Of a DNA stretch of 64,000 nt, positions 23,763 through 36,689 are shown piece after piece. Within the stretch, counting starts at the first letter, position 1; every line of letters begins with the position of its first letter. The stretch covers positions 147,914 to 211,913 of the forward strand of contig CAMTUG010000001.1 in assembly GCA_947084965.1 (NCBI GenBank), in the 5' to 3' direction. This stretch comes from an uncultured Parcubacteria group bacterium. Its GTDB lineage: Bacteria; Patescibacteriota; Patescibacteriia; UBA9934; CAMTUG01. The position numbers and the translations under genes were made by a program. The notes beneath the pieces are model-generated. The model searched no databases. It was not told where the DNA came from and saw nothing but the letters and a program-made list of their open reading frames with translations.

Positions 23763-24194
23763 ATGAATCACATCTCGGAGGAAAAGTTTGTGGCAAGCAT
23801 GCAGGGGGTAGAAAACCGCTTTCAGCAGATGGATAACCGTTTTGAGCAAATCGATAATCGCTTTCAGCTGGTGGATAACCGTTTTCAACAGGTGGACAAA
23901 CGATTCGAACAAATCGATAACCGTTTTCAACAGGTGGATAATCGTTTACAGCAGGTTGATAAGCGTTTTGAGCAGGTTGATAAGCGTTTAGACACGCTCG
24001 AGTTTCAGGTAAAGGGATTGAGAGACGATATTCGACAGGTTGAGGATAAGATGGACGTTAAGTTCGATACGATCATCAACATGCTCGATCGAGACACCCG
24101 ATGGAAAACGGACACCGAAGCTGAGGTTGCTGCGGCCCATGCGAGAATCGATCGTGTCGAAGTGCAACTTGCGCTCAAGCCAACGACGCCATAA
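23763..24194 (+). CDS. heptad-repeat coiled-coil protein (8x [I/V]D[N/K]RF[E/Q]Q)
   Basis: 21-bp tandem DNA repeats at about 23818-23985 encode MDNRFEQ IDNRFQL VDNRFQQ VDKRFEQ ... Confidence 0.55.
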   Translation: MNHISEEKFVASMQGVENRFQQMDNRFEQIDNRFQLVDNRFQQVDKRFEQIDNRFQQVDNRLQQVDKRFEQVDKRLDTLEFQVKGLRDDIRQVEDKMDVKFDTIINMLDRDTRWKTDTEAEVAAAHARIDRVEVQLALKPTTP

Positions 24195-24261
24195 GGATGC
24201 CTGGGTTACGAGGTTTTTGGCGGGGTCAGTGACCCTGCTTTGTGTTATAATCATCGGGCAT

Positions 24262-26388
24262 ATGAAGGAATTTATGCTCTCGGGCGGAGCTCCGGACGTG
24301 CCCAAGATTGATTACCAAAACGAGCTAAACGCAGAGCAGCTCGAAGTGGTGTTGAACGGCGATGGGCCGTGTTTGGTATTGGCCGGAGCGGGTTCGGGGA
24401 AGACACGGACGATCACGTATCGCGTGGCCTATTTGCTCGAGCAAGGGGTGCGACCAGATGAGATTCTGCTTTTGACCTTCACCAACAAGGCGGCCAAAGA
24501 GATGATGGAGCGCATCACCCACTTGCTCGGGTCGGTGCCGTACGGACTGTGGGGCGGGACGTTCCATTCGATCGGGAACCGCATTTTGCGTCAGTATGCC
24601 AACGTCATCGGCTACCAATCGAACTTCACGATCATGGATCACGATGATTCTGTGGATCTGGTGAAGATCGTCATTAAGGATTTAAAGATTGATACCAAGG
24701 AGAAGCGTTTTCCTTCGGCCGCCGTCGTACACGCGATTATTTCGTATAGTCGCAACGCCAAGATGTCGATCGAAGAAACGGTCGAGACGAAGTACTCTCA
24801 ATTTGTTGATGACAGTTCGACGATCGCGCGGATCGCGGCGCAGTATGAATCGCGCAAGCGCACCGGGAACACGATGGACTTTGATGACTTGTTGTTGCTC
24901 CTCGCTGATCTTTTAGCCACAAATCCACAAGTAAAAAATGCGCTTGCGACACGATTCCGCTATGTGTTGGTGGATGAGTATCAGGATACGAACGTGATTC
25001 AGGCGCGGCTAGTCAATGATCTCTCGAGTGTGCATCGCAATCTGCTCGTGGTCGGCGACGACGCTCAGTCGATCTATTCCTTCCGGGCGGCAGAGATCAG
25101 AAATATTTTAGGATTTCCGAACGCCCACTCGGGGGCCAAGACGTTCCGTCTGGAGACAAACTATCGTTCCACGCCAGAAATTTTGTCCCTGGCCAACTCG
25201 ATCATCGAACAGAACACGGACCAGTTTTCTAAAGAGTTGATCGCGGTGCGTGACGCATTTGAAAAACCAAACTTGATTCCAACGTCAGACACGCGCCAAG
25301 AGGCGCAGTACATTAGCGAGCAGATCGTCCAGATGATCGATAAGGGGATGCCGCTTTCTGAAATTGCCGTCTTGTTCCGCGCCGCGCATCACTCGCAAGC
25401 ATTAGAAATGGAGCTGTCGCGCCGCAACATTCCGTACGAGTTCCGCGGTGGGATGAAGTTTTTTGAACGCGCGCATATCAAGGACGTGGTTTCTTACATT
25501 CGTTTGATCGCTAACCCCAAAGACGGGATGGCTTGGATCCGTGTGCTGTCGCATCAGGTTGGAATTGGGGCGGTGACCGCGACCAAGATTATGGAGGTGA
25601 TGCAGAATTTTGAATCGATCGCTCAGGCGCTCGAAGCGGATTCAACGGGGTTCGTGCCAGGGCGCAGTTCGTCTGGCTGGCGATCCCTGACATCCGTCCT
25701 CAACTCGATGCACAAAACGGATCGCCAGCCGTCGTCGTTGATTCGCATTGTCGCTACCTCTGCCTATCAAGATTACTTGAACGCCGAGTATCCAAATGCG
25801 GCGGAGCGGTTGGAAGATATCGAACAGTTCGCCATTTTTTCAGAGCAATATTCTGACCTGTCGCAATTCTTGGAAGAAGTTTCACTTAAAGACGACTACG
25901 GCGCGGTGCAAGAAGAGGGTGGATACAAAGAAGAGCGGATGATTCTGTCGACGATTCATCAGGCTAAGGGACTTGAGTGGAACGCGGTTTTTGTGATGAA
26001 CTTGACCGACGGAGCCTTCCCGCATCCTCGGGCACTCAGTGAAGCGGGAGGGATCGAGGAAGAACGTCGCTTGTTCTATGTCGCCACCACGCGCGCGCGC
26101 AAGCATCTCTTTCTCACGTATCCAATTACCAGCGGGTATGAAACAATGGAGGTGCGCCAGCCGTCAATGTTCCTCGACGAGTTACCAAAAGGGTTGCTTG
26201 AGGAGGTGCGCGTCAAACGTCCGGCCGCGTCCTATCTTTCTTCACCTCGCGATTTGGGATCAAAAAGTCGTTGGGGGGAGAGTAGTGATGAGGAGTATGA
26301 CGAACCGACGATCGTTCTTGATGGGATGGGGGAGGTAAAGAAGGCTCCGCCGCGGACCGGGTTTTTGCGTTCTATCGATGAATTATGA
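24262..26388 (+). CDS. UvrD/PcrA-family ATP-dependent DNA helicase
   Basis: Walker A (AGAGSGKTRTI), DEYQDTN, and SF1 motifs through TIHQAKGLEW / YVATTRAR. Confidence 0.9.
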   Translation: MKEFMLSGGAPDVPKIDYQNELNAEQLEVVLNGDGPCLVLAGAGSGKTRTITYRVAYLLEQGVRPDEILLLTFTNKAAKEMMERITHLLGSVPYGLWGGTFHSIGNRILRQYANVIGYQSNFTIMDHDDSVDLVKIVIKDLKIDTKEKRFPSAAVVHAIISYSRNAKMSIEETVETKYSQFVDDSSTIARIAAQYESRKRTGNTMDFDDLLLLLADLLATNPQVKNALATRFRYVLVDEYQDTNVIQARLVNDLSSVHRNLLVVGDDAQSIYSFRAAEIRNILGFPNAHSGAKTFRLETNYRSTPEILSLANSIIEQNTDQFSKELIAVRDAFEKPNLIPTSDTRQEAQYISEQIVQMIDKGMPLSEIAVLFRAAHHSQALEMELSRRNIPYEFRGGMKFFERAHIKDVVSYIRLIANPKDGMAWIRVLSHQVGIGAVTATKIMEVMQNFESIAQALEADSTGFVPGRSSSGWRSLTSVLNSMHKTDRQPSSLIRIVATSAYQDYLNAEYPNAAERLEDIEQFAIFSEQYSDLSQFLEEVSLKDDYGAVQEEGGYKEERMILSTIHQAKGLEWNAVFVMNLTDGAFPHPRALSEAGGIEEERRLFYVATTRARKHLFLTYPITSGYETMEVRQPSMFLDELPKGLLEEVRVKRPAASYLSSPRDLGSKSRWGESSDEEYDEPTIVLDGMGEVKKAPPRTGFLRSIDEL

Positions 26389-28361: not shown

Positions 28362-29588
28362 CTACAACTCGTGATCGTAATGCCAGCCGCTGGAACGCGT
28401 TTTGAACTCGACTCCTAAGAGAGAGGCGCGTGTCCACGACCCTGATCCATACCGGGACTGAATTTTATCCAAGGCAGAAGTTGCGCTGAGCAATCTCTGT
28501 TCTTTTTTAAACAATGATCGCGCTTCAGCACCAGTGCAAAGCTGGCTGGCGGTGATGCCGATCAGGCGCACAGGGTGATCGAGATCGTTTTTGATTAAAC
28601 TCCAACCGATCTCGGCCAGTTTGGCGCCGTCGGACGTTGGTTCAGCAAAGCGATGCTCGCGGCCAAATCCGCCCAAGTCGCCGAAGCGTACGTAGGCAGA
28701 AACAGAACGAGCGACAAGTCCGTCTCGGCGCAATCGCCAAGCGACTTTGTCGGCGAGTGCCAGCAGTTGCCGCTTAATATCGCGCGGGTCATCTAAATCA
28801 CGCGGCATCGTATACGAATGACCAACAGATTTCGGTGCTGCCTCGCTACTGGCAACAGGGGAGTCGTCGCGACCAAAGGCCGCCTCATGTAACCACCAGC
28901 CCCAACTTTTAAACTCTTGTACCAGGAGCTCGCGCGGATAGCGGCGCAATTGTTCAACAGTAAAAATGCCCAGATCGGCCAGATGCTCCTGTGTGCGCCG
29001 GCCGATTCCGGAGATATCCTCAAGTTCGCAAGATCCAACAAAGTCGAGCACCGCTTCTGGCCGCACAACGGTTAGGCCGTTTGGTTTGTGGGAGCCAGCA
29101 GCGAGTTTAGCGATTAACTTATTCGGCCCGATGCCAACCGACGCCGTAATTCGTTCACCGCACTCTTCTGCCAATCGCGCACGAATCGTCTGGGCCAGCA
29201 TCATTGCTCCAAAGTAGTCACGTGCGGCGTGGGTGACATCAAGATAGCTTTCGTCTACGCTCGCTGGCTCAACCTGGTCCGTATAGTCGCGATAAATCGC
29301 ATTGAACCGAGCGGTAATCTCGGAATACTTTTCTGGATCTCCCGGAATAATAATCAAAGAAGGACAGATGCGTCGTGCTTCCCAGGTCGACATTGCTGTT
29401 TTCACTCCAAGCCGTTTGGCTTCAACAGATGCTGTAGCCACGATCGTGCGTTGGGCCTGATCCGCTCGTGAAGGATCAAAACTCTTGCCACTGACCCCAA
29501 TCGGCTTGCCACGCAAAAACGGATTCGCTTGCTGTTCAACGCTCGCGAAGTACGAGTTCATGTCGATGTGCATGATGATGCGATCCAT
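28362..29588 (-). CDS. dinB: DNA polymerase IV (Y-family)
   Basis: IMHIDMNSYFASVE, SVDESYLDV and other UmuC/DinB motifs. Confidence 0.9.
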   Translation of the reverse strand: MDRIIMHIDMNSYFASVEQQANPFLRGKPIGVSGKSFDPSRADQAQRTIVATASVEAKRLGVKTAMSTWEARRICPSLIIIPGDPEKYSEITARFNAIYRDYTDQVEPASVDESYLDVTHAARDYFGAMMLAQTIRARLAEECGERITASVGIGPNKLIAKLAAGSHKPNGLTVVRPEAVLDFVGSCELEDISGIGRRTQEHLADLGIFTVEQLRRYPRELLVQEFKSWGWWLHEAAFGRDDSPVASSEAAPKSVGHSYTMPRDLDDPRDIKRQLLALADKVAWRLRRDGLVARSVSAYVRFGDLGGFGREHRFAEPTSDGAKLAEIGWSLIKNDLDHPVRLIGITASQLCTGAEARSLFKKEQRLLSATSALDKIQSRYGSGSWTRASLLGVEFKTRSSGWHYDHEL

Positions 29589-29966: not shown

Positions 29967-30158
29967 TTAAATGTGCGCTAAGATCCCGCGGACGATCTGC
30001 TTAAACTTGCGGCGGCTGGTGTGTACCCGCAGCATCTTGCGCGCATGTTGAATCCGGCGCAGGGACTTGGTTGGCATGAACGAAACGGTCGAACCGTAGT
30101 AGCGAAGAATGGCTTCAGACATAGAGTTTTGTATAGGCGGGGCCACTGCGCCCCGCAT
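29967..30158 (-). CDS. hypothetical small basic protein in the lexA-dinB operon (true start probably the internal Met at 30122)
   Basis: 51-63 aa, Arg/Lys-rich. The first 12 codons of the long form overlap the family-B hairpin repeat. Confidence 0.35.
   Translation of the reverse strand: MRGAVAPPIQNSMSEAILRYYGSTVSFMPTKSLRRIQHARKMLRVHTSRRKFKQIVRGILAHI
30126..30152 (-). repeat. GC-hairpin repeat, family B, copy 2 (inverted orientation)
   Basis: Minus-strand reading GCGGGGCGCAGTGGCCCCGCCTATAC, downstream of lexA. Confidence 0.65.
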
Positions 30159-30210
30159 GAGTTAACAAATTTAATCAACCGTACATGGGCGTACCTTTGC
30201 CTCCGTTGAA

Positions 30211-30837
30211 TTATGCCGTCGCAAATTTACGAATCACTCCGCGTACAATTCCTTGGATGTTGATGTCACCGTTCACGATAATCGGCTGCATGGTCGAGTT
30301 AGCTGGTTGCAGACGAATGTGGGTTGATTCACGGTAGAAGCGTTTGAGTGTGGCGTAAGCGTTGTCGAGGAGCGCCACGACGATGTCTCCGTTCTTTGGT
30401 GAAGGGTTGCGTTCGATGATCACGTAGTCGCCGTCGAAAATTCCATCTTCGATCATCGAGCGCCCTTTGACTTTGAGCACATACGAGTTGGTCTGATCGA
30501 TCACAAAGTCGCTCGGCACCGCTATCGCTTCACGCTGTTCGACCGCTTCGATCGGTTCACCGGCGGTGATCAGCCCCGAGAGCGGGAGCATGATCGCCAA
30601 TGGGTGTGATTCCACGCGGTTCATCGGGTGCGACAGGCTGAGCGACCGCGCTTCGCCTTCTTCGCTCCCGGTCAGGAACCCTTTGTCGATCAGCGCCTGG
30701 ACGTGCTGGTGCACGGTGGCAGGGGAGGAGAGCTCGAACGCGTCGGCGATTTCGCGGTACGTCGGCGCATACCCGTTCTCTTCGATCTGGTTCCTGATGA
30801 ACTCCAGGATCTCGGATTGTTTCTTTGTCAGCGCCAT
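30211..30837 (-). CDS. lexA: LexA repressor (S24 peptidase)
   Basis: N-terminal wHTH (LTKKQSEILEFI...YREIAD). Cleavage-site and Ser/Lys dyad motifs (VKGRSMIEDGIFDGD...; KRF). Confidence 0.9.
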   Translation of the reverse strand: MALTKKQSEILEFIRNQIEENGYAPTYREIADAFELSSPATVHQHVQALIDKGFLTGSEEGEARSLSLSHPMNRVESHPLAIMLPLSGLITAGEPIEAVEQREAIAVPSDFVIDQTNSYVLKVKGRSMIEDGIFDGDYVIIERNPSPKNGDIVVALLDNAYATLKRFYRESTHIRLQPANSTMQPIIVNGDINIQGIVRGVIRKFATA

Positions 30838-30849
30838 AAGTTATGTGAT

Positions 30850-30906
30850 TCGCCCGTTCGGCTTATGTTCGTACTATAGACCGAACAAAAACCGAACGCA
30901 AGCGAT
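30850..30906. promoter_or_regulatory. candidate SOS operator: two GTTC-N7-GTTC direct repeats in inverted arrangement upstream of lexA
   Basis: Plus strand GTTCGGCTTATGTTCG-tactatagac-CGAACAAAAACCGAAC. In lexA sense this reads GTTCGGTTTTTGTTCG. It sits about 30-80 nt upstream of the lexA ATG and overlaps a TATAGT -10-like hexamer. Confidence 0.4.
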
Positions 30907-30962
30907 AGGGTGGGGATAAGTTTCAAAGTGGTACTATTACAGACATGTTTAGTTAGTTAAGT

Positions 30963-32213
30963 TTGTCTGTGTCGTATTCGGATGTTTTAAAAAAGTTTCT
31001 CTGGATGCTGTTTGCCTGGGTTTTTGGGCTTACGATTTTTGGTATCACTTTTGCCATAACAGAGATTCCTCAGCCCTGGCTTATGATAGTTGTGGCAGGG
31101 GTTGTTATCCTTGTTGCAGCACAGTTGATGTATTCAACAATAAGTGATCTTGAGAGTAAATTTAAAAAGGAAATTTCCGCGATTGAAGGTGGGGCAAACT
31201 CAATAATCATCGCGGCAGAAAAGTTCAAAGTTAGTGCTGAAGAAGATGCGGCGCTTTGGAAGAAAACACTTTTGGAACGAAGTAGTGGCTTCCCAAGTCT
31301 TGTTGACTTGATTGGGGAGTATGAAAAGCTTCGTGATCAGAAAGATGAATACTATTTAAATAGAAAGTCTCATCCGGCGCATCGGGCTGCAGACTTAGTT
31401 GCGGAGCATTCGAGATTAAGACGCGAGGCGGAACGTAAGAGACGTCAGATTCAGGCGATCATCGAATATTATGAAAGTATCGCTCCGTTTCTTCTTGATT
31501 TTAAGGAACAGGAGTTTGGCGACCTTGATGCAGAGAACACATTGGCTGACTATACGCCAGAAGAGCAGCAAGATCCGGTAACGCAATATTTGGTTAAGGA
31601 CGAGTACAGAAGTCTTTCTTCTACCGAGAGAAATCAGCGTGCGCTCGATAGGTTCTGGTCACGACCAAAGTCAAATTGGATGATTGGTCGTTTGTACGAA
31701 CGATATGTTGGATACTTATTTGAAGCTGATGGCTATGATGTCGAATACTACGGTATTTTTAAGGGGTATGAGGATCTTGGTCGGGATTTGATTTGTAGGA
31801 AAGGGAAACAGGTCGTGATTGTACAGTGCAAGAACTGGTCGAAGTTTAAAACTGTTTTCGAGAATCACATCTTTCAGTTTTTCGGGACCGTATTTTATTT
31901 CCGTGACCAGAACCGCGATAGAGATGTATCCGCGGCATTTTATTGCACAACATCCGTTTCAGACTTTGCTCGCAGATTTGCATCTGAGCTGGGCGTCAAG
32001 CTTTTTGAGAACCACGTTTTCGATCGGTCCTACCCATGTATAAAATGTAATATCTCGTCAGGTGGTGAAAAGATTTACCATCTTCCATTTGATCAACAGT
32101 ATGACAATGTTAAGATCGAGGTCCATAAAGGCGAGTTTTATTGCAAGACTGTACAAGAAGCCGAAAAAGCCGGATTCAGAAGGGCTTTTCGGTGGGCAGG
32201 TTTGAAACAGTAG
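30963..32213 (+). CDS. membrane-anchored coiled-coil protein with C-terminal Mrr-cat (PD-(D/E)xK restriction-endonuclease-like) domain
   Basis: Two N-terminal TM helices and a long charged helical region, then RLYERYVGYLFEADGYDVEYYG...DLGRDLICRKGKQVVIVQCKNW typical of the Mrr catalytic fold. Cys-containing C-terminal tail. TTG start. Confidence 0.65.
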   Translation: MSVSYSDVLKKFLWMLFAWVFGLTIFGITFAITEIPQPWLMIVVAGVVILVAAQLMYSTISDLESKFKKEISAIEGGANSIIIAAEKFKVSAEEDAALWKKTLLERSSGFPSLVDLIGEYEKLRDQKDEYYLNRKSHPAHRAADLVAEHSRLRREAERKRRQIQAIIEYYESIAPFLLDFKEQEFGDLDAENTLADYTPEEQQDPVTQYLVKDEYRSLSSTERNQRALDRFWSRPKSNWMIGRLYERYVGYLFEADGYDVEYYGIFKGYEDLGRDLICRKGKQVVIVQCKNWSKFKTVFENHIFQFFGTVFYFRDQNRDRDVSAAFYCTTSVSDFARRFASELGVKLFENHVFDRSYPCIKCNISSGGEKIYHLPFDQQYDNVKIEVHKGEFYCKTVQEAEKAGFRRAFRWAGLKQ

Positions 32214-32265
32214 GCGGTTCCTTGGGTGCTCAGTCAAGTGTTAATCGGTGGTAGAATATAAGCCT

Positions 32266-32619
32266 ATGAGTGACATCAAAAAGCTCCAGGATGAGGTCGT
32301 GGCCTTTCGGGATGCGCGCGACTGGAAGCAGTTTCACAAGCCGAAGGATTGTGCAATTTCGTTGACGCTTGAGGCGGCGGAAGTTGCCGAACTCTTTCAG
32401 TGGAAAAACGATGAAGAGATTGATGCCTATCGTCCAGGCGGCGCAAAGCACGACGACATTAGTGATGAACTCGCGGACGTGATGTACTGGGTGCTTTTGC
32501 TTGCCAATGACTTCGGTGTCGACTTAGATGAAGCTTGGAGTCGCAAGATGGCGAAGAATGATGCGAAGTATCCGGTCGATAAAGCGAAGGGATCGCATAA
32601 AAAATATACTGAACTCTAG
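32266..32619 (+). CDS. MazG-like all-alpha NTP pyrophosphohydrolase
   Basis: EAAEVAELF...DELADVMYWVLLLANDFGVDLDEAWSRKMAKNDAKYP are MazG/NTP-PPase EExxE and D-E motifs. Its stop lies 3 nt before the DUF2075 start. Confidence 0.7.
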   Translation: MSDIKKLQDEVVAFRDARDWKQFHKPKDCAISLTLEAAEVAELFQWKNDEEIDAYRPGGAKHDDISDELADVMYWVLLLANDFGVDLDEAWSRKMAKNDAKYPVDKAKGSHKKYTEL

Positions 32620-32622
32620 TTT

Positions 32623-34476
32623 GTGTTTGTTTATCGACATACTGTCGCGGGGTTCCGCGAAGACGTTGAAAAGAATCAGATCGGCGACATCGTTCAATCG
32701 TATTACGAGAATACGACCGGCCGTCGAGTTTCGCCAAACGAGAAACGTTCATGGAGCAATTCGCTTCAGTTTATGGAGCGTATTGTTCGACGATCGAACG
32801 TTGCTCCGTCGTGCGGTATTTTGATTGAATATGTGATTCCATCAACATCCAATCGGATCGACTTTTTTATTTCCGGGCATGATGACGCAGGTAATAAGAA
32901 CTTTGTCATTATTGAATTGAAACAATGGGAGACAGCGGAGGCAACTGAAAAGGAGGATATTGTTTCAACTTTTCTCGGCGGTAGTGTGCGCGAGACGACA
33001 CATCCGTCGTACCAAGCACTTTCCTACAAACTTTTTCTCGAGGACTATAACGAAAACATTGATTCAAAAAATCTCATACCGCATTCCTGCGCCTATTTGC
33101 ACAACTTTGCTGAACGCAGTCCCGAACCGCTCACTTTGGGAATTTATGCCGATACGGTGAAAGAGTCACCGATTTACTTCCGTGATGACTACGAAAAACT
33201 GGAACAGTTTTTGAAGAAGTATGTTGGCCAGGGCAACGGCGAAGAGATCTTGTACGAAGTTGAATACGGCCGTATTCGTCCGAGCAAGAAGTTGATTGAT
33301 TACGTCTCGAGCATGCTCGAGGGGAATCAGGAGTTTATCTTGCTCGACGAACAAAAGATTGCCTACGAAACGGCGATGTTTGTAGCGAGGCAAGAAGAAA
33401 AGTCCGTTGTCATTATTTCCGGTGGACCTGGCACAGGGAAGTCCGTTGTCTCCGTTAATCTTCTCGGTGGGTTGTTACGAGATGAAATGAACGCCGTCTT
33501 TGTTGCTCCGAACGCTTCGTTTCGCGATGCAATGGTGCACAAGCTCGCGAGGAAGATGAAAAAGACGCGGCTCAAGTCGTTGTTTAAAGGATCCTCGGTG
33601 TTTGTTGATGCAGAGCCGAACACGTTTGGTGCGATCATTATTGACGAAGCTCACCGTTTGAAGAACGAAAAGGCGTACATGTATCAAGGTGAGAATCAGG
33701 TTGAGGACATTGTCCGTGCAGCCAAGACGAGCATTTTCTTCGTTGATGATAATCAAGTGATTCGTCCGGATGATATCGGCTGTGAAGACGAGATTCGACG
33801 CGTCGCTAAGGCGGAAGGAGCTAGGGTTTACGAAGTCGAGTTGAAAGCTCAATTCCGTTGCGCTGGTGCGGAGGGGTATTTGAACTGGTTGGACAACACA
33901 CTGCACATCCAAGAAACGGCGAACTTCGACGGTTGGGAGCAACAGGGGTTTGAGTTTAAAGTTTTCGATGATCCAAATGCGCTTGCTAACGCAATCAAGG
34001 CAAAGCAAGTGGAAGGGAAAAGCGCGCGGCTTGTCGCGGGTTACGCTTGGGAATGGACGAGCGGCAAAGAGGGGAATATGGACGCGCAGCACAACGATGT
34101 CACAATCCCCGAATATGACTTCTCAATGCCGTGGAACTCGCGAAAGATCGGTACGACCTGGGCGATCGATCCAGGCGGCGTCCACCAGATCGGCTGCGTT
34201 CACACCTCTCAGGGCCTGGAGTTCGACTACATTGGTGTGATCGTCGGGAAGGATTTGCAGTTTGATCCTGCCACGGGCGAGTTTTACACCGATTGGTCGG
34301 AGTACAAGGATCACAACGGTAAGAAAGGACTAAAAAAGGATCCAGAAAAGTTGAACCGCCTTGTGCGCAATATCTACAAGATTTTGATGACACGCGGGCA
34401 GAAGGGATGTTACGTTTATTTCGTCGACAAGAATGTCGAAGATTACTTTAAGAAGAGGTTGGGACCACAAAAATAA
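32623..34476 (+). CDS. DUF2075-type (Schlafen-like) P-loop NTPase with N-terminal PD-(D/E)xK nuclease-like region
   Basis: N-terminal SWSNSLQFM... and IDFFISGHDDAGNKNFVIIELKQWE (D-E-K). Walker A ISGGPGTGKSV, Walker B IIIDEAH. C-terminal helicase-like region to ...CYVYFVD. GTG start coupled to the MazG-like gene. Confidence 0.65.
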   Translation: MFVYRHTVAGFREDVEKNQIGDIVQSYYENTTGRRVSPNEKRSWSNSLQFMERIVRRSNVAPSCGILIEYVIPSTSNRIDFFISGHDDAGNKNFVIIELKQWETAEATEKEDIVSTFLGGSVRETTHPSYQALSYKLFLEDYNENIDSKNLIPHSCAYLHNFAERSPEPLTLGIYADTVKESPIYFRDDYEKLEQFLKKYVGQGNGEEILYEVEYGRIRPSKKLIDYVSSMLEGNQEFILLDEQKIAYETAMFVARQEEKSVVIISGGPGTGKSVVSVNLLGGLLRDEMNAVFVAPNASFRDAMVHKLARKMKKTRLKSLFKGSSVFVDAEPNTFGAIIIDEAHRLKNEKAYMYQGENQVEDIVRAAKTSIFFVDDNQVIRPDDIGCEDEIRRVAKAEGARVYEVELKAQFRCAGAEGYLNWLDNTLHIQETANFDGWEQQGFEFKVFDDPNALANAIKAKQVEGKSARLVAGYAWEWTSGKEGNMDAQHNDVTIPEYDFSMPWNSRKIGTTWAIDPGGVHQIGCVHTSQGLEFDYIGVIVGKDLQFDPATGEFYTDWSEYKDHNGKKGLKKDPEKLNRLVRNIYKILMTRGQKGCYVYFVDKNVEDYFKKRLGPQK

Positions 34477-34515: not shown

Positions 34516-34719
34516 TTAATCGGTGTTGCACTCACGTACGCAGTAGTAACAGCCGTTGACCTGGCTGTAGTACACTTGTGCGGCGTGGACAGCAGCTCGA
34601 CAGTTGGTGAAGTCGCCCAGGTATTTCGCATTTTCCCCATTTGGGAAGAAGGAACAGCCCAGGGTGTGGACCTCGTGATCCCCGTTTGCCTGCGCGTTTG
34701 TATTGACGTAGTAACGCAT
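34516..34719 (-). CDS. small Cys-rich (metal-binding?) protein, second gene of the unknown two-gene operon
   Basis: 67 aa, MRYYVNTNAQANGDHEVH..C..C..CYYCVREC. Five Cys with a C-terminal CxxCxxxC. 21 nt downstream of the 331-aa ORF. Confidence 0.5.
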   Translation of the reverse strand: MRYYVNTNAQANGDHEVHTLGCSFFPNGENAKYLGDFTNCRAAVHAAQVYYSQVNGCYYCVRECNTD

Positions 34720-34740: not shown

Positions 34741-35736
34741 TTAGCCGACCTTTGTTTTATGAAGCCGTTGTTTAACTGCTTTTGATAGCTTTGTCTTCCA
34801 GCCGTGGACATGCACGACACGATCGAAGTCGCGTTGTGCTAGGGCGAGCAACTGAAGACGGCTCAGTTTACTTAGATCCTCCCAATTGCATCCCATGATG
34901 TACGCAGCATTTCCATATTCCACATTCTCGAAGACTACTAGGTCGTCAGCATATTGCGCGCCGAAATAGCGACGGAATCCGTCCGTTCCAGCGATGTATT
35001 GCTTTGGATCGAGCGTACTTAGGAAACCGTAACGATCCTCAACGTTTTTTCTGAGTTCAGGGGAGACGACTCGACGTGTGCCGATGATTTTTTCGATATT
35101 GCTCTCGCGTTCTCCTGGCGGCAGGATTTGCCACGTGATCGCCACGGTTTTCAAGTAGTCCTCTCTGCTCGCGCTTGCCAGAAACACATCAACGTGTCCG
35201 ACGTTTTCCTGAATGATTCCAAGATTATAAAGTAGGTCTGCCTCTAAGTTGGACTTTTCGTATTCGAGCACCTCCTCGGATCGGAAGTTGATCGTGACAC
35301 GACCGTCTGGATTTTGATCAAGCACATCAATACGGATTGCGAGCTGTTTTGCTGGGAAATATTCACGTTCGTAAACATCGCGATCCCATTCGACTGTGTG
35401 TGAGCCGTTGCTCCAGTCACCGAAGTTCGGAGCCTCGAACGAATAGTGTTTCTGAGTCATAGGTAGGTCCTTGCGAACGCGCTCTCGTCCGTTAAGGTTT
35501 GTGTCTGACCAGCGGCCCATGTTGGCCGGGGGAATTACAGATTCTGGAGCAACGACACGACCGTCTTTTACCTCGATGTTCAGATGTGCGTAGCGTCCAG
35601 CGGCGATCGAAGCGATGGTGGTTTTAATGGTTGTACCGACGACGAAGCCTGTTTTCATGGTCGCAACCTTGGTGTGGATCCGTTTCGGGACTTTTAGGAA
35701 GCTTCGTGGCTTCCAGGGTATTTCTCGATATGACAT
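34741..35736 (-). CDS. unknown 331-aa protein (possible C-terminal Rx6H HEPN-like motif), first gene of a two-gene operon divergent from the XRE/ImmA pair
   Basis: No family recognised by eye. C-terminal ...LAQRDFDRVVHVHGW contains an R-x6-H spacing. AT-rich codon usage like the rest of the island. Confidence 0.5.
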   Translation of the reverse strand: MSYREIPWKPRSFLKVPKRIHTKVATMKTGFVVGTTIKTTIASIAAGRYAHLNIEVKDGRVVAPESVIPPANMGRWSDTNLNGRERVRKDLPMTQKHYSFEAPNFGDWSNGSHTVEWDRDVYEREYFPAKQLAIRIDVLDQNPDGRVTINFRSEEVLEYEKSNLEADLLYNLGIIQENVGHVDVFLASASREDYLKTVAITWQILPPGERESNIEKIIGTRRVVSPELRKNVEDRYGFLSTLDPKQYIAGTDGFRRYFGAQYADDLVVFENVEYGNAAYIMGCNWEDLSKLSRLQLLALAQRDFDRVVHVHGWKTKLSKAVKQRLHKTKVG

Positions 35737-35878
35737 AATGGGCTCGGGACTTTTGGAATTAGAGTAGCGCTGTCGGACCGCCCCAGTGGTTCGTTTCAGT
35801 GTGTTGATGCCAGTTTATCAGTACGGCAAATATCTTGTCAAATCGAACCGAAACCGGTATGCTATCAAAGCAATAAAT

Positions 35879-36208
35879 ATGGAAAATGAAAATGTCACGA
35901 TCGGGTCCAGAATTCGAGCCGAACGAAAACGACTCGGAATATCTCAGCTGCGGCTCGCTAAAGACGTCGGCTTTGAGTCGGCAACAGCGATCTCGTTGAT
36001 CGAAAGCGGGGTGAGAAGCGTTGCTGCAGAGAAGCTTGGCCTTATTGCAAGGGCCCTGAAAGTTGACATCAAGCAGTTGCTAGGACAGAGGCCTGATCAG
36101 GTGGATGTCATCGTCGCACTTAGGGCCGACAAGGAGCTTGGTTCGGCCGAGAAGAATTACATTCTCAATTTTATCCAAAATGCAAAACATCAACACAGAA
36201 AAGGATGA
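35879..36208 (+). CDS. XRE-family helix-turn-helix regulator
   Basis: IGSRIRAERKRLGISQLRLAKDVGFESATAISLIESG is a canonical HTH_3. Internal Met start of the 35786 ORF. Confidence 0.75.
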   Translation: MENENVTIGSRIRAERKRLGISQLRLAKDVGFESATAISLIESGVRSVAAEKLGLIARALKVDIKQLLGQRPDQVDVIVALRADKELGSAEKNYILNFIQNAKHQHRKG

Positions 36209-36689
36209 GCTGGACTTGGGGCCGCGAAAGAACTTTGCCTTGGCGATGGCTCGTAAGCTGTTGAAGTGTGCGGAGATCACGGCCGCTCCTGTTTCATTAC
36301 ATCGTGTAGTTGAGTATGCTAGGAGGGACAGAAACCTCACTATTATTTTGGAGAAGATCCCGGGTCGTATCTCAGGGATCATGGTCAAGGTTCGCGACCT
36401 CGACGAAGTCTCCACCTTTATCGGTATTAACACGGAAGAACCGTGGCACAGGCAGCGTTATACACTCGGTCATGAATTGGGTCATGTGTTTATGGAACAT
36501 TCCGGATGCACGGGCGATGATTCATACGAAGAACGTGAAGCCCAGATATTTGCAGCGGAACTTCTTATGCCAACGGCGTTCATCAAACAGGACTTAAAGG
36601 CCCTGCGTAACATCCCGGCGCTTGCTAGGCTATACTGCGTAAGTGAGCATGCGCTTAGTATTAAGCTTAAAGATTGCAGACTGATTTAG
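36180..36689 (+). CDS. ImmA/IrrE-family zinc metallopeptidase (DUF955)
   Basis: HEXXH motif (TLGHELGHVFMEH) with downstream E (EEREAQIFAAELLMP). Overlaps the XRE gene end. Confidence 0.75.
   Translation: MQNINTEKDELDLGPRKNFALAMARKLLKCAEITAAPVSLHRVVEYARRDRNLTIILEKIPGRISGIMVKVRDLDEVSTFIGINTEEPWHRQRYTLGHELGHVFMEHSGCTGDDSYEEREAQIFAAELLMPTAFIKQDLKALRNIPALARLYCVSEHALSIKLKDCRLI

Follow-up and report, generated by a model that had tools for sequence, protein, structure and literature searches.

A co-inherited, mobile gene pair for a MazG-like pyrophosphatase and a PD-(D/E)xK nuclease-helicase, with a possible role in defence against invading DNA

What a small nucleotide pyrophosphatase and a large DUF2075 protein, encoded by two tightly coupled genes, might do together is the question raised by positions 32266 to 34476 of a 64,000-nucleotide stretch of DNA from an uncultured Parcubacteria group bacterium (contig CAMTUG010000001.1, assembly GCA_947084965.1; the whole stretch is referred to as the window). 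A sequence-only reading had described the pair as a MazG-like nucleoside triphosphate (NTP) pyrophosphohydrolase joined to a Schlafen-like ATPase/nuclease and had proposed a two-component immunity module acting by nucleotide depletion. As a whole this interpretation was partly supported, with immunity itself inferred. The MazG-DUF2075 pair is a genuine, ancient and mobile two-gene unit. By analogy with characterised proteins, its preferred role, given a probability of about 0.5, would be an Nhi-like nuclease-helicase defence against invading DNA with a DCTPP1-type accessory enzyme. The architecture of nuclease and DUF2075 helicase was already known; the new elements are the MazG partnership and the proposed gating by a Peptidase_S24 (S24) domain.

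The two open reading frames (ORFs), encoding 117 and 617 amino acids (aa), were found in the sequence as they had been described, with 3 nt between the first stop codon and the GTG start of the second. This GTG is taken as the true start because 28 aligned homologues begin at the same residue, M1 being invariant and Y4 nearly invariant. An identical copy of the 617-aa protein, in the same gene order, was present in an independent assembly. Tight coupling, as claimed for the window, was also seen in relatives: the helicase start lies inside the MazG stop (4-nt ATGA overlap) in at least nine or ten of the loci whose junctions were examined.

Co-occurrence was analyzed from the helicase side in one genome per species, which gave 80 loci with relatives 42 to 63% identical from candidate phyla radiation (CPR) bacteria, Gammaproteobacteria, Omnitrophota, Planctomycetia, Bacteroidota, Paenibacillus, Clostridia, spirochaetes, Halomonas, and methanogenic archaea. 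A MazG-like gene was located within 6 kb in 47 of the 80, on the same strand in all 47; it was upstream in 42, about 33 of these no more than 35 nt away, and downstream in 5. The adjacency is far beyond chance, because the pairing recurs in 47/80 independent genomes. Pairwise identities of the MazG and helicase proteins co-varied with a Pearson r of 0.71, which 0/2000 label permutations reached in a Mantel test. On a neighbour-joining tree, the presence of MazG corresponded to 12 changes compared with 24.7 for shuffled labels, the root was reconstructed as MazG-positive, and the clade of the window was uniformly MazG-positive. From the opposite side, a search with the MazG profile brought up 80 metagenomic loci; in 34 of the 71 evaluable ones a DUF2075 protein adjoined MazG, both gene orders were seen, and 21 of the 34 DUF2075 proteins carried the N-terminal domain of the window type. 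Other DUF2075 partners of MazG were GIY-YIG and DUF2075 proteins, often with a C-terminal Peptidase_S24, or were encoded by a helicase gene placed upstream. Three very abundant human-gut MazG-like clusters were looked up, and all three lay directly upstream of a DUF2075 gene. The pairing is thus not peculiar to this locus: it has been kept in different phyla, archaea among them, and the helicase, being mobile and scattered in its distribution, is unlike a housekeeping one. Neither outcome that the sequence-only reading had named as refuting, a lack of conserved co-occurrence or a housekeeping helicase, was seen.

These data bear on whether the two genes simply lie side by side, each with a function independent of the other. 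The MazG-like gene stood without DUF2075 in 37/71 evaluable loci, and DUF2075 also occurs without MazG. Set against this are the shared strand of all co-occurring pairs, the ATGA overlaps, the correlated divergence, and the fact that the pairing is seen again in either gene order and with another type of nuclease (GIY-YIG). Mere adjacency is effectively refuted by the synteny statistics and retains hardly any probability.

For the DUF2075 helicase core, MazG is a partner that is ancestral and co-inherited yet dispensable. It is regarded as an accessory and not as a second component that the helicase requires, because about 40% of relatives (33/80) do without it and at least 12 gains or losses are counted on the tree. 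The architecture of the large protein has validated single-gene precedents in defence (Nhi, Nhi-like, and AbiO). The same counts weigh on a toxin-antidote or addiction arrangement, in which a self-toxic nuclease-helicase would be restrained by the coupled MazG, through binding or removal of an activating nucleotide, and would stabilise the element or cause abortive infection. The small gene is upstream and coupled, with overlapping stop and start codons, which would fit a type II toxin-antitoxin pair; the two genes are inherited together and travel on plasmids and mobilisable elements, AbiO becomes toxic when its copy number is high, and E. coli mazG sits in the mazEF operon. An obligate antidote is nevertheless hard to square with the relatives that lack MazG and the 5 loci with MazG downstream. 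The catalytic residues of MazG are invariant, so enzymatic activity, not mere binding, is under selection, and this arrangement was judged improbable.

The 617-aa protein, which has more than 8000 homologues, matched the Pfam family SLFN-g3_helicase (PF09848, formerly DUF2075) at 3.9e-92 over residues 260 to 602. Helicase motifs I, II, V, and VI were invariant or nearly so in the 28 homologues (Table 1), and the Walker A and Walker B motifs as well as the segments IDFFISGHDD and IIELKQWE pointed out by the sequence-only reading were all present. In Foldseek, the full-length AlphaFold2 model (predicted local distance difference test score, pLDDT, 70.6) matched the superfamily 1B (SF1B) helicases RecD, Dna2, RecD2, and Dda, plus SLFN14; the helicase profile searched against PDB sequences returned only P-loop noise. 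Residues 1 to 235 modelled alone (pLDDT 85.8, predicted template modelling score 0.82) showed a restriction-endonuclease fold, and E69, D80, E98, and K100, invariant in the 28 homologues, form a canonical PD-(D/E)xK site, which bears out the nuclease-like N terminus noticed earlier. A profile of this domain collected 1336 clusters (50% identity) at E ≤ 1e-10, always in N-terminal position, in complete proteins of about 620 to 650 aa or about 780 to 815 aa. In sequence and predicted fold, the protein is a PD-(D/E)xK nuclease domain with a complete SF1B-like helicase behind it.

This architecture is that of Nhi (S. epidermidis SERP2475; Bari et al. 2022), Nhi-like (Millman et al. 2022), and AbiO, which are validated single-gene anti-phage proteins. 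They combine a D...ExK nuclease domain of PD-(D/E)xK type at the N terminus with a DUF2075/SF1B helicase carrying Walker A and B, in Nhi and Nhi-like on one polypeptide. Nuclease and helicase activities have been reconstituted in vitro for Nhi. In AbiO, a Lactococcus abortive-infection protein, the PD-(D/E)xK domain and the SF1B or SLFN-group-3-like helicase are predicted only. There are also differences. The PADLOC model for Nhi matched only the P-loop region (44.8 bits, 1.7e-12, residues 236 to 390), that for AbiO was similarly limited (48.9 bits, 1e-13, residues 235 to 412 only), and the N-terminal domain of the window protein is larger (235 aa) and constitutes a separate family, with 1336 clusters. 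The MazG-like partner and the S24 fusions are absent from the Nhi preprint and the preprint of Millman et al., and no mention of a MazG partner was found for AbiO. The PADLOC candidate PDC-S41 was the sole defence model aligning to the N-terminal domain (residues 3 to 315, 3.6e-17), with 59.9 bits over profile positions 5 to 292 of 657 and similarly weak scores for nine relatives; by these scores the window protein is a distant relative, not a member.

Likeness to Schlafens, as the sequence-only reading had it, applied to the helicase half alone. The C-terminal helicase-like domain family PF09848 is common to the window protein and the SLFN11-type (group III) Schlafens, in agreement with the SLFN14 match, and the ability of the SLFN11 helicase domain to bind single-stranded DNA (ssDNA) and respond to replication stress parallels the S24 and LexA links of the cassette described below. 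A Schlafen RNase at the N terminus was rejected by Pfam and by the domain fold: the AlbA_2-type Ex4ExK domain, the Schlafen core, is absent and the nuclease has the PD-(D/E)xK DNase-type fold. It is the RNase domain, and not this helicase, that defines the bacterial Schlafens with a demonstrated role in defence.

The Pfam assignment of the 117-aa protein also agreed with the sequence-only reading. It matched MazG-like (PF12643) at 1.6e-17 and 63.9 bits, above the curated cut-off of 27 for this group of MazG-like/DCTPP1 all-alpha NTP pyrophosphatases, with weaker matches to MazG and PRA-PH. The closest solved structures in the PDB were mouse and human DCTPP1 (RS21-C6; E = 2.3e-19, 40% identity, essentially full length). 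When 26 MazG proteins paired with DUF2075 genes were aligned, the acidic metal ligands of the ExxE ... ExxD pattern (E36, E39, E68, and D71) were invariant and E42 nearly so, and F14, R18, W20, F44, K94, and Y102 were likewise invariant. DCTPP1 is a sanitiser of deoxycytidine triphosphate (dCTP) and C5-modified dCTP, with a pocket formed by a Trp47/Trp73 sandwich, the filters His38 and His51, Phe50, and Tyr129 (PMC13291643). When the residues named there were placed on the PDB alignment, Trp47, Phe50, His51, Trp73, Asp98, and Tyr129 corresponded to W20, F23, H24, W46, D71, and Y102, so that most of the cytosine pocket was conserved, His38 aligning to Gln8. The enzyme is very probably catalytically active, because its metal ligands are invariant and its pocket residues match those of DCTPP1, and a cytosine-type substrate is plausible. 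It differs from DCTPP1 in being a minimal prokaryotic enzyme, encoded with a nuclease-helicase, whose substrate is predicted only.

The nucleotide depletion proposed by the sequence-only reading is consequently not the best-fitting role of this enzyme. An abortive system in which MazG is the effector, bulk-depleting deoxynucleotides or nucleotides once the helicase senses foreign nucleic acid, would agree with the conserved and co-evolving gene pair, and nucleotide-depleting defences exist. The MazG domain has moreover been predicted as defensive by DefensePredictor, without validation (PMC13092281). Yet the nearest solved relative is a sanitiser and not a bulk dNTPase, the 117-aa enzyme has no regulatory domain, 33/80 relatives work without MazG, and the large protein has a conserved nuclease active site of its own, which makes it an effector in itself. 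Such a system is doubtful.

In the preferred Nhi-like defence, the mobile two-gene cassette would act against invading DNA of phages or other mobile elements. The 617-aa protein would be the effector, its SF1B-type motor loading on DNA and translocating while the N-terminal PD-(D/E)xK domain cuts; this mechanism is proposed because Nhi and AbiO have the same domain architecture. The co-translated MazG-like enzyme would hydrolyse dCTP-type nucleotides, especially C5-modified or non-canonical ones, and could thereby stop phages rebuilding modified or hypermodified DNA, or keep breakdown products out of host DNA.

The genomic contexts of the pair fit a mobile cassette. A conserved third gene was rejected, as 45/72 pairs had no close co-directional ORF upstream and 57/72 had none downstream, and the close neighbours, where present, spanned 49 Pfam families, immediate ones including Fic, TPR, DpnI, C5 and N6/N4 methylases, MrcB_N, NurA, and Gp49. 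In 112 flanking ORFs (±6 kb, 25 chromosomal loci) scanned with Pfam and PADLOC, the content was heterogeneous with many housekeeping genes. With so few conserved neighbours and such heterogeneous flanks, the cassette behaves as a self-contained insertion. Its distribution is patchy and cross-domain, archaea included, with carriage on plasmids and mobilisable elements. On a Priestia plasmid the gene order is MutT, DUF3578/MrcB_N, nucleotide pyrophosphohydrolase, and DUF2075, and a restriction endonuclease and a type I restriction-modification system border these genes. On human-gut mobilisable elements with HTH_17, Rep, and MobC (L167-L170 and L175-L177), an operon runs from NUDIX through DUF3427/NOV_C, a 102-aa unknown protein, MazG-like, DUF2075, and DUF6414 to an AAA ATPase, and it was present on hundreds of contigs. 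The DUF3427/NOV_C protein of this operon is a member of the McaZI group, whose enzymes depend on modified cytosine, and adjacency of this group of modification-dependent restriction enzymes to DUF2075 NTPases had been noted before (Lutz et al. 2019, PMC6765204). The gut elements share this neighbourhood, with MazG in between; the pyrophosphatase is unmentioned in that report, and the window has Mrr_cat in place of DUF3427. Such restriction and modified-DNA contexts, together with the similarity to DCTPP1, suggest a link of the cassette to modified-cytosine DNA.

A C-terminal LexA-like S24 domain was found in about 10 to 15% of relatives, the S24 homologues being about 775 to 795 aa long. Of the 80 genome loci, 9 had S24 behind the helicase, all of them MazG-positive (9/9; hypergeometric p = 0.006), and in this variant MazG was still upstream with an overlapping junction. 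The relatives P0025 and P0092 retain a LexA/UmuD-like cleavage site (..PCG.. / ..AACG..) together with the serine of GxSM and the lysine. The domain would probably gate the enzyme by self-cleavage stimulated by RecA-ssDNA. Pfam detected no S24 domain in the 617-aa protein of the window, where the lexA gene next to the cassette and the candidate LexA boxes may instead convey the same damage or ssDNA signal at the level of transcription. S24 was seen fused to DUF2075 nuclease-helicases of two nuclease types, PD-(D/E)xK and GIY-YIG, with a MazG-like gene always adjacent (loci in Table 1).

In the window, the Mrr_cat, MazG-like, and helicase genes run divergently from lexA-dinB, and uvrD lies close by, which amounts to an SOS-like cluster beside the cassette. 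The candidate LexA boxes in the shared promoter region are of the direct-repeat type known from Alphaproteobacteria. The GTTC-N7-GTTC pattern alone was not enriched in the window (7 found compared with 3.7 expected); for this reason LexA control of the cassette is proposed only tentatively, and the paired palindrome as LexA boxes is suggestive only. An SOS or DNA-damage module was considered on these grounds, in which the nuclease-helicase would process damaged or stalled replication intermediates, MazG would clear oxidised or otherwise damaged dCTP from the pool, and LexA in the window, or a fused S24 domain in relatives, would tie expression or activity to activated RecA. The S24 domains in 9/80 relatives and in the GIY-YIG variants, the many chromosomal neighbourhoods that are not defence islands, and the house-cleaning function known for DCTPP1 and MazG (e.g., mycobacterial MazG) agree with it. 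It is at odds with the patchy, mobile, and cross-domain distribution, with carriage as cargo on mobilisable elements beside restriction genes, with lexA adjacency at the window locus only, with the lack of motif enrichment, and with the fact that the nearest characterised architectures are defence proteins. A damage module was rated unlikely.

Several findings also weigh against the Nhi-like defence. Full-length profile hidden Markov model (HMM) membership in Nhi or AbiO was not found, and the PADLOC Nhi, AbiO, and PDC-S41 models gave only partial matches of 45 to 65 bits for the window protein and ten relatives. MazG is missing from the 33 relatives mentioned, no MazG-DUF2075 fusion occurred in the top 120 matches of either search, and the replacement of DCTPP1 His38 by Gln8 concerns a filter of the pocket. 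The position beside lexA, dinB, and uvrD suits a DNA-damage role equally well. Defence-model hits, among them mad3, PDC-S05, PDC-S23, and IetA, were a minority in the 25 chromosomal neighbourhoods and do not by themselves show enrichment in defence islands, and a few phage records carry the MazG and DUF2075 pair.

No named system or paper linking DUF2075 or Nhi with MazG or a pyrophosphohydrolase was found in the searchable papers, subscription journals lying outside this coverage, in line with the sequence-only reading, which had not recognised the pair as a named system. A much broader and rather unlikely extension is that MazG-DUF2075(-S24) constitutes a widespread unrecognised immune or genome-guardian system. 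RecA-ssDNA, through S24 or LexA, would license the nuclease-helicase, the DCTPP1-type enzyme would specifically destroy modified dCTP, and with type IV readers (Mrr, MrcB_N, and DUF3427) the two would strike the DNA of cytosine-hypermodified phages as well as their pool of precursors. Such a system would be the prokaryotic counterpart of two human proteins of genome surveillance, SLFN11 (helicase domain) and DCTPP1, working together. If the cassette is defensive, the MazG/DCTPP1 fold gains a role in immunity. The cassette suggests a strategy yet to be demonstrated, the cutting of invader DNA while its modified precursors are removed, and the S24 fusions would provide a simple activation switch, self-cleavage induced by activated RecA, for a helicase domain common to human SLFN11. 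At 2.2 kb the cassette is compact and self-contained, and it occurs in Paenibacillus, Halomonas, and Priestia, which can be cultured, so that experiments are straightforward.

Table 1. Features of the gene pair and its surroundings in the window, and loci on other contigs (given with their locus labels).
Feature	Position	Strand	Evidence or remark
MazG-like (DCTPP1-type) all-alpha NTP pyrophosphatase, 117 aa	32266..32619	+	Pfam PF12643; PDB DCTPP1; ATG at 32266, TAG at 32617-32619
Gene junction	32617..32625	+	TAG stop, 3-nt spacer TTT, GTG start (sequence)
Nuclease-helicase, 617 aa, DUF2075/SLFN-g3 helicase family	32623..34476	+	Pfam PF09848; Foldseek; GTG at 32623
N-terminal PD-(D/E)xK-fold nuclease domain, aa 1-235	32623..33327	+	
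Glu69, putative catalytic residue	32827..32829	+	Invariant in 28 homologues
Asp80, D of PD-(D/E)xK	32860..32862	+	Invariant
Glu98-Leu-Lys100, ExK of PD-(D/E)xK	32914..32922	+	E98, L99, K100, Q101, W102 invariant
SF1B-like helicase/DUF2075 domain, aa 260-602	33400..34428	+	Pfam stretch; Foldseek SF1B helicases
Walker A GGPGTGKS	33421..33444	+	G268, P269, T271-S274 invariant; G267, G270 nearly
Walker B IIIDEAH	33634..33654	+	D341-K347 invariant
Helicase motif V-like HTSQGLEFD	34201..34227	+	H527, T528, Q530-D535 invariant; S529 nearly
Helicase motif VI-like LMTRG (Arg591)	34384..34398	+	L588, R591 invariant; M589, G592 nearly
UvrD-type helicase gene, a few kb away	24040-26388	+	
Y-family polymerase gene (IMS/DinB), after lexA on same strand	28362-29588	-	Pfam
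lexA (LexA_DNA_bind and Peptidase_S24)	30211..30837	-	Pfam
Candidate LexA boxes	30855..30898	.	22-nt imperfect palindrome with two GTTC-N7-GTTC motifs, between divergent lexA and Mrr_cat
Mrr_cat nuclease gene	30963..32213	+	Pfam Mrr_cat 1.4e-09; NCBIfam sunset 1e-07
Cys-rich 67-aa gene	34516-34719	-	phrog_4298, 1e-21
331-aa gene	34741-35736	-	
HTH_3 and Peptidase_M78 (ImmA/IrrE) pair	35786-36689		PADLOC capH (2e-07), capP (4e-19)
S24-fusion loci	L005-L007, L009, L010, L067, L074, L077, L079, L082-L086, L104, L163		
NTP pyrophosphatase with PLD-SF2-DUF3427 loci	L062:2136-5592, L069:817-4287, L023:10194-13086, L027:11014-13792, L036:11007-13752		
MazG-like with HNH endonuclease or AAA_11/AAA_12 SF1 helicase	L095:1817-2806, L153:1146-2246, L139:3147-4943		
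MazG-like and DUF2075 pair of Microcystis phage Mwe-JY31	L165:4657-6863		PP438423.1, 22 kb

Around the gene pair, scans for promoters and terminators gave nothing above shuffled expectation, and a hairpin after the stop codon was not significant (z = -1.45). The 52 nt between the end of the Mrr_cat gene and MazG contain nothing like a terminator, and the Mrr_cat gene is possibly co-transcribed with the pair; a homologue beside the pair was seen in none of the other loci examined. In the membrane-anchored 416-aa Mrr_cat protein, two membrane helices are predicted at the N terminus, and the protein also contains a coiled region, the Mrr_cat domain, and a C-terminal sunset domain. Downstream, the capH/capP-like pair is divergent from the 331-aa and Cys-rich genes, and this region may be a second, regulated module. 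The GC content dips to 0.47 to 0.48 at 30001-34000, compared with about 0.52 to 0.53 for most of the window, which is consistent with horizontally acquired DNA.

A phage origin of the helicase was rejected: no relative was confirmed when viral contigs of IMG/VR were scanned for its pattern, PHROGs has no dedicated helicase family, and only four GenBank phage records contained helicase relatives. One of the four, a 22-kb record deposited as Microcystis phage Mwe-JY31, carries the pair, and all of its genes are annotated as hypothetical. In several loci, small all-alpha NTP pyrophosphatases, MazG-like or PRA-PH-like, were located directly upstream of ORFs of about 820 to 1040 aa for a phospholipase D (PLD) nuclease with a superfamily 2 (SF2) helicase and DUF3427. 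Because these proteins have the same upstream neighbour, the partnering of such pyrophosphatases with nuclease-helicases is not limited to DUF2075. Close MazG-like homologues were also paired with HNH endonucleases or an AAA_11/AAA_12 superfamily 1 (SF1) helicase.

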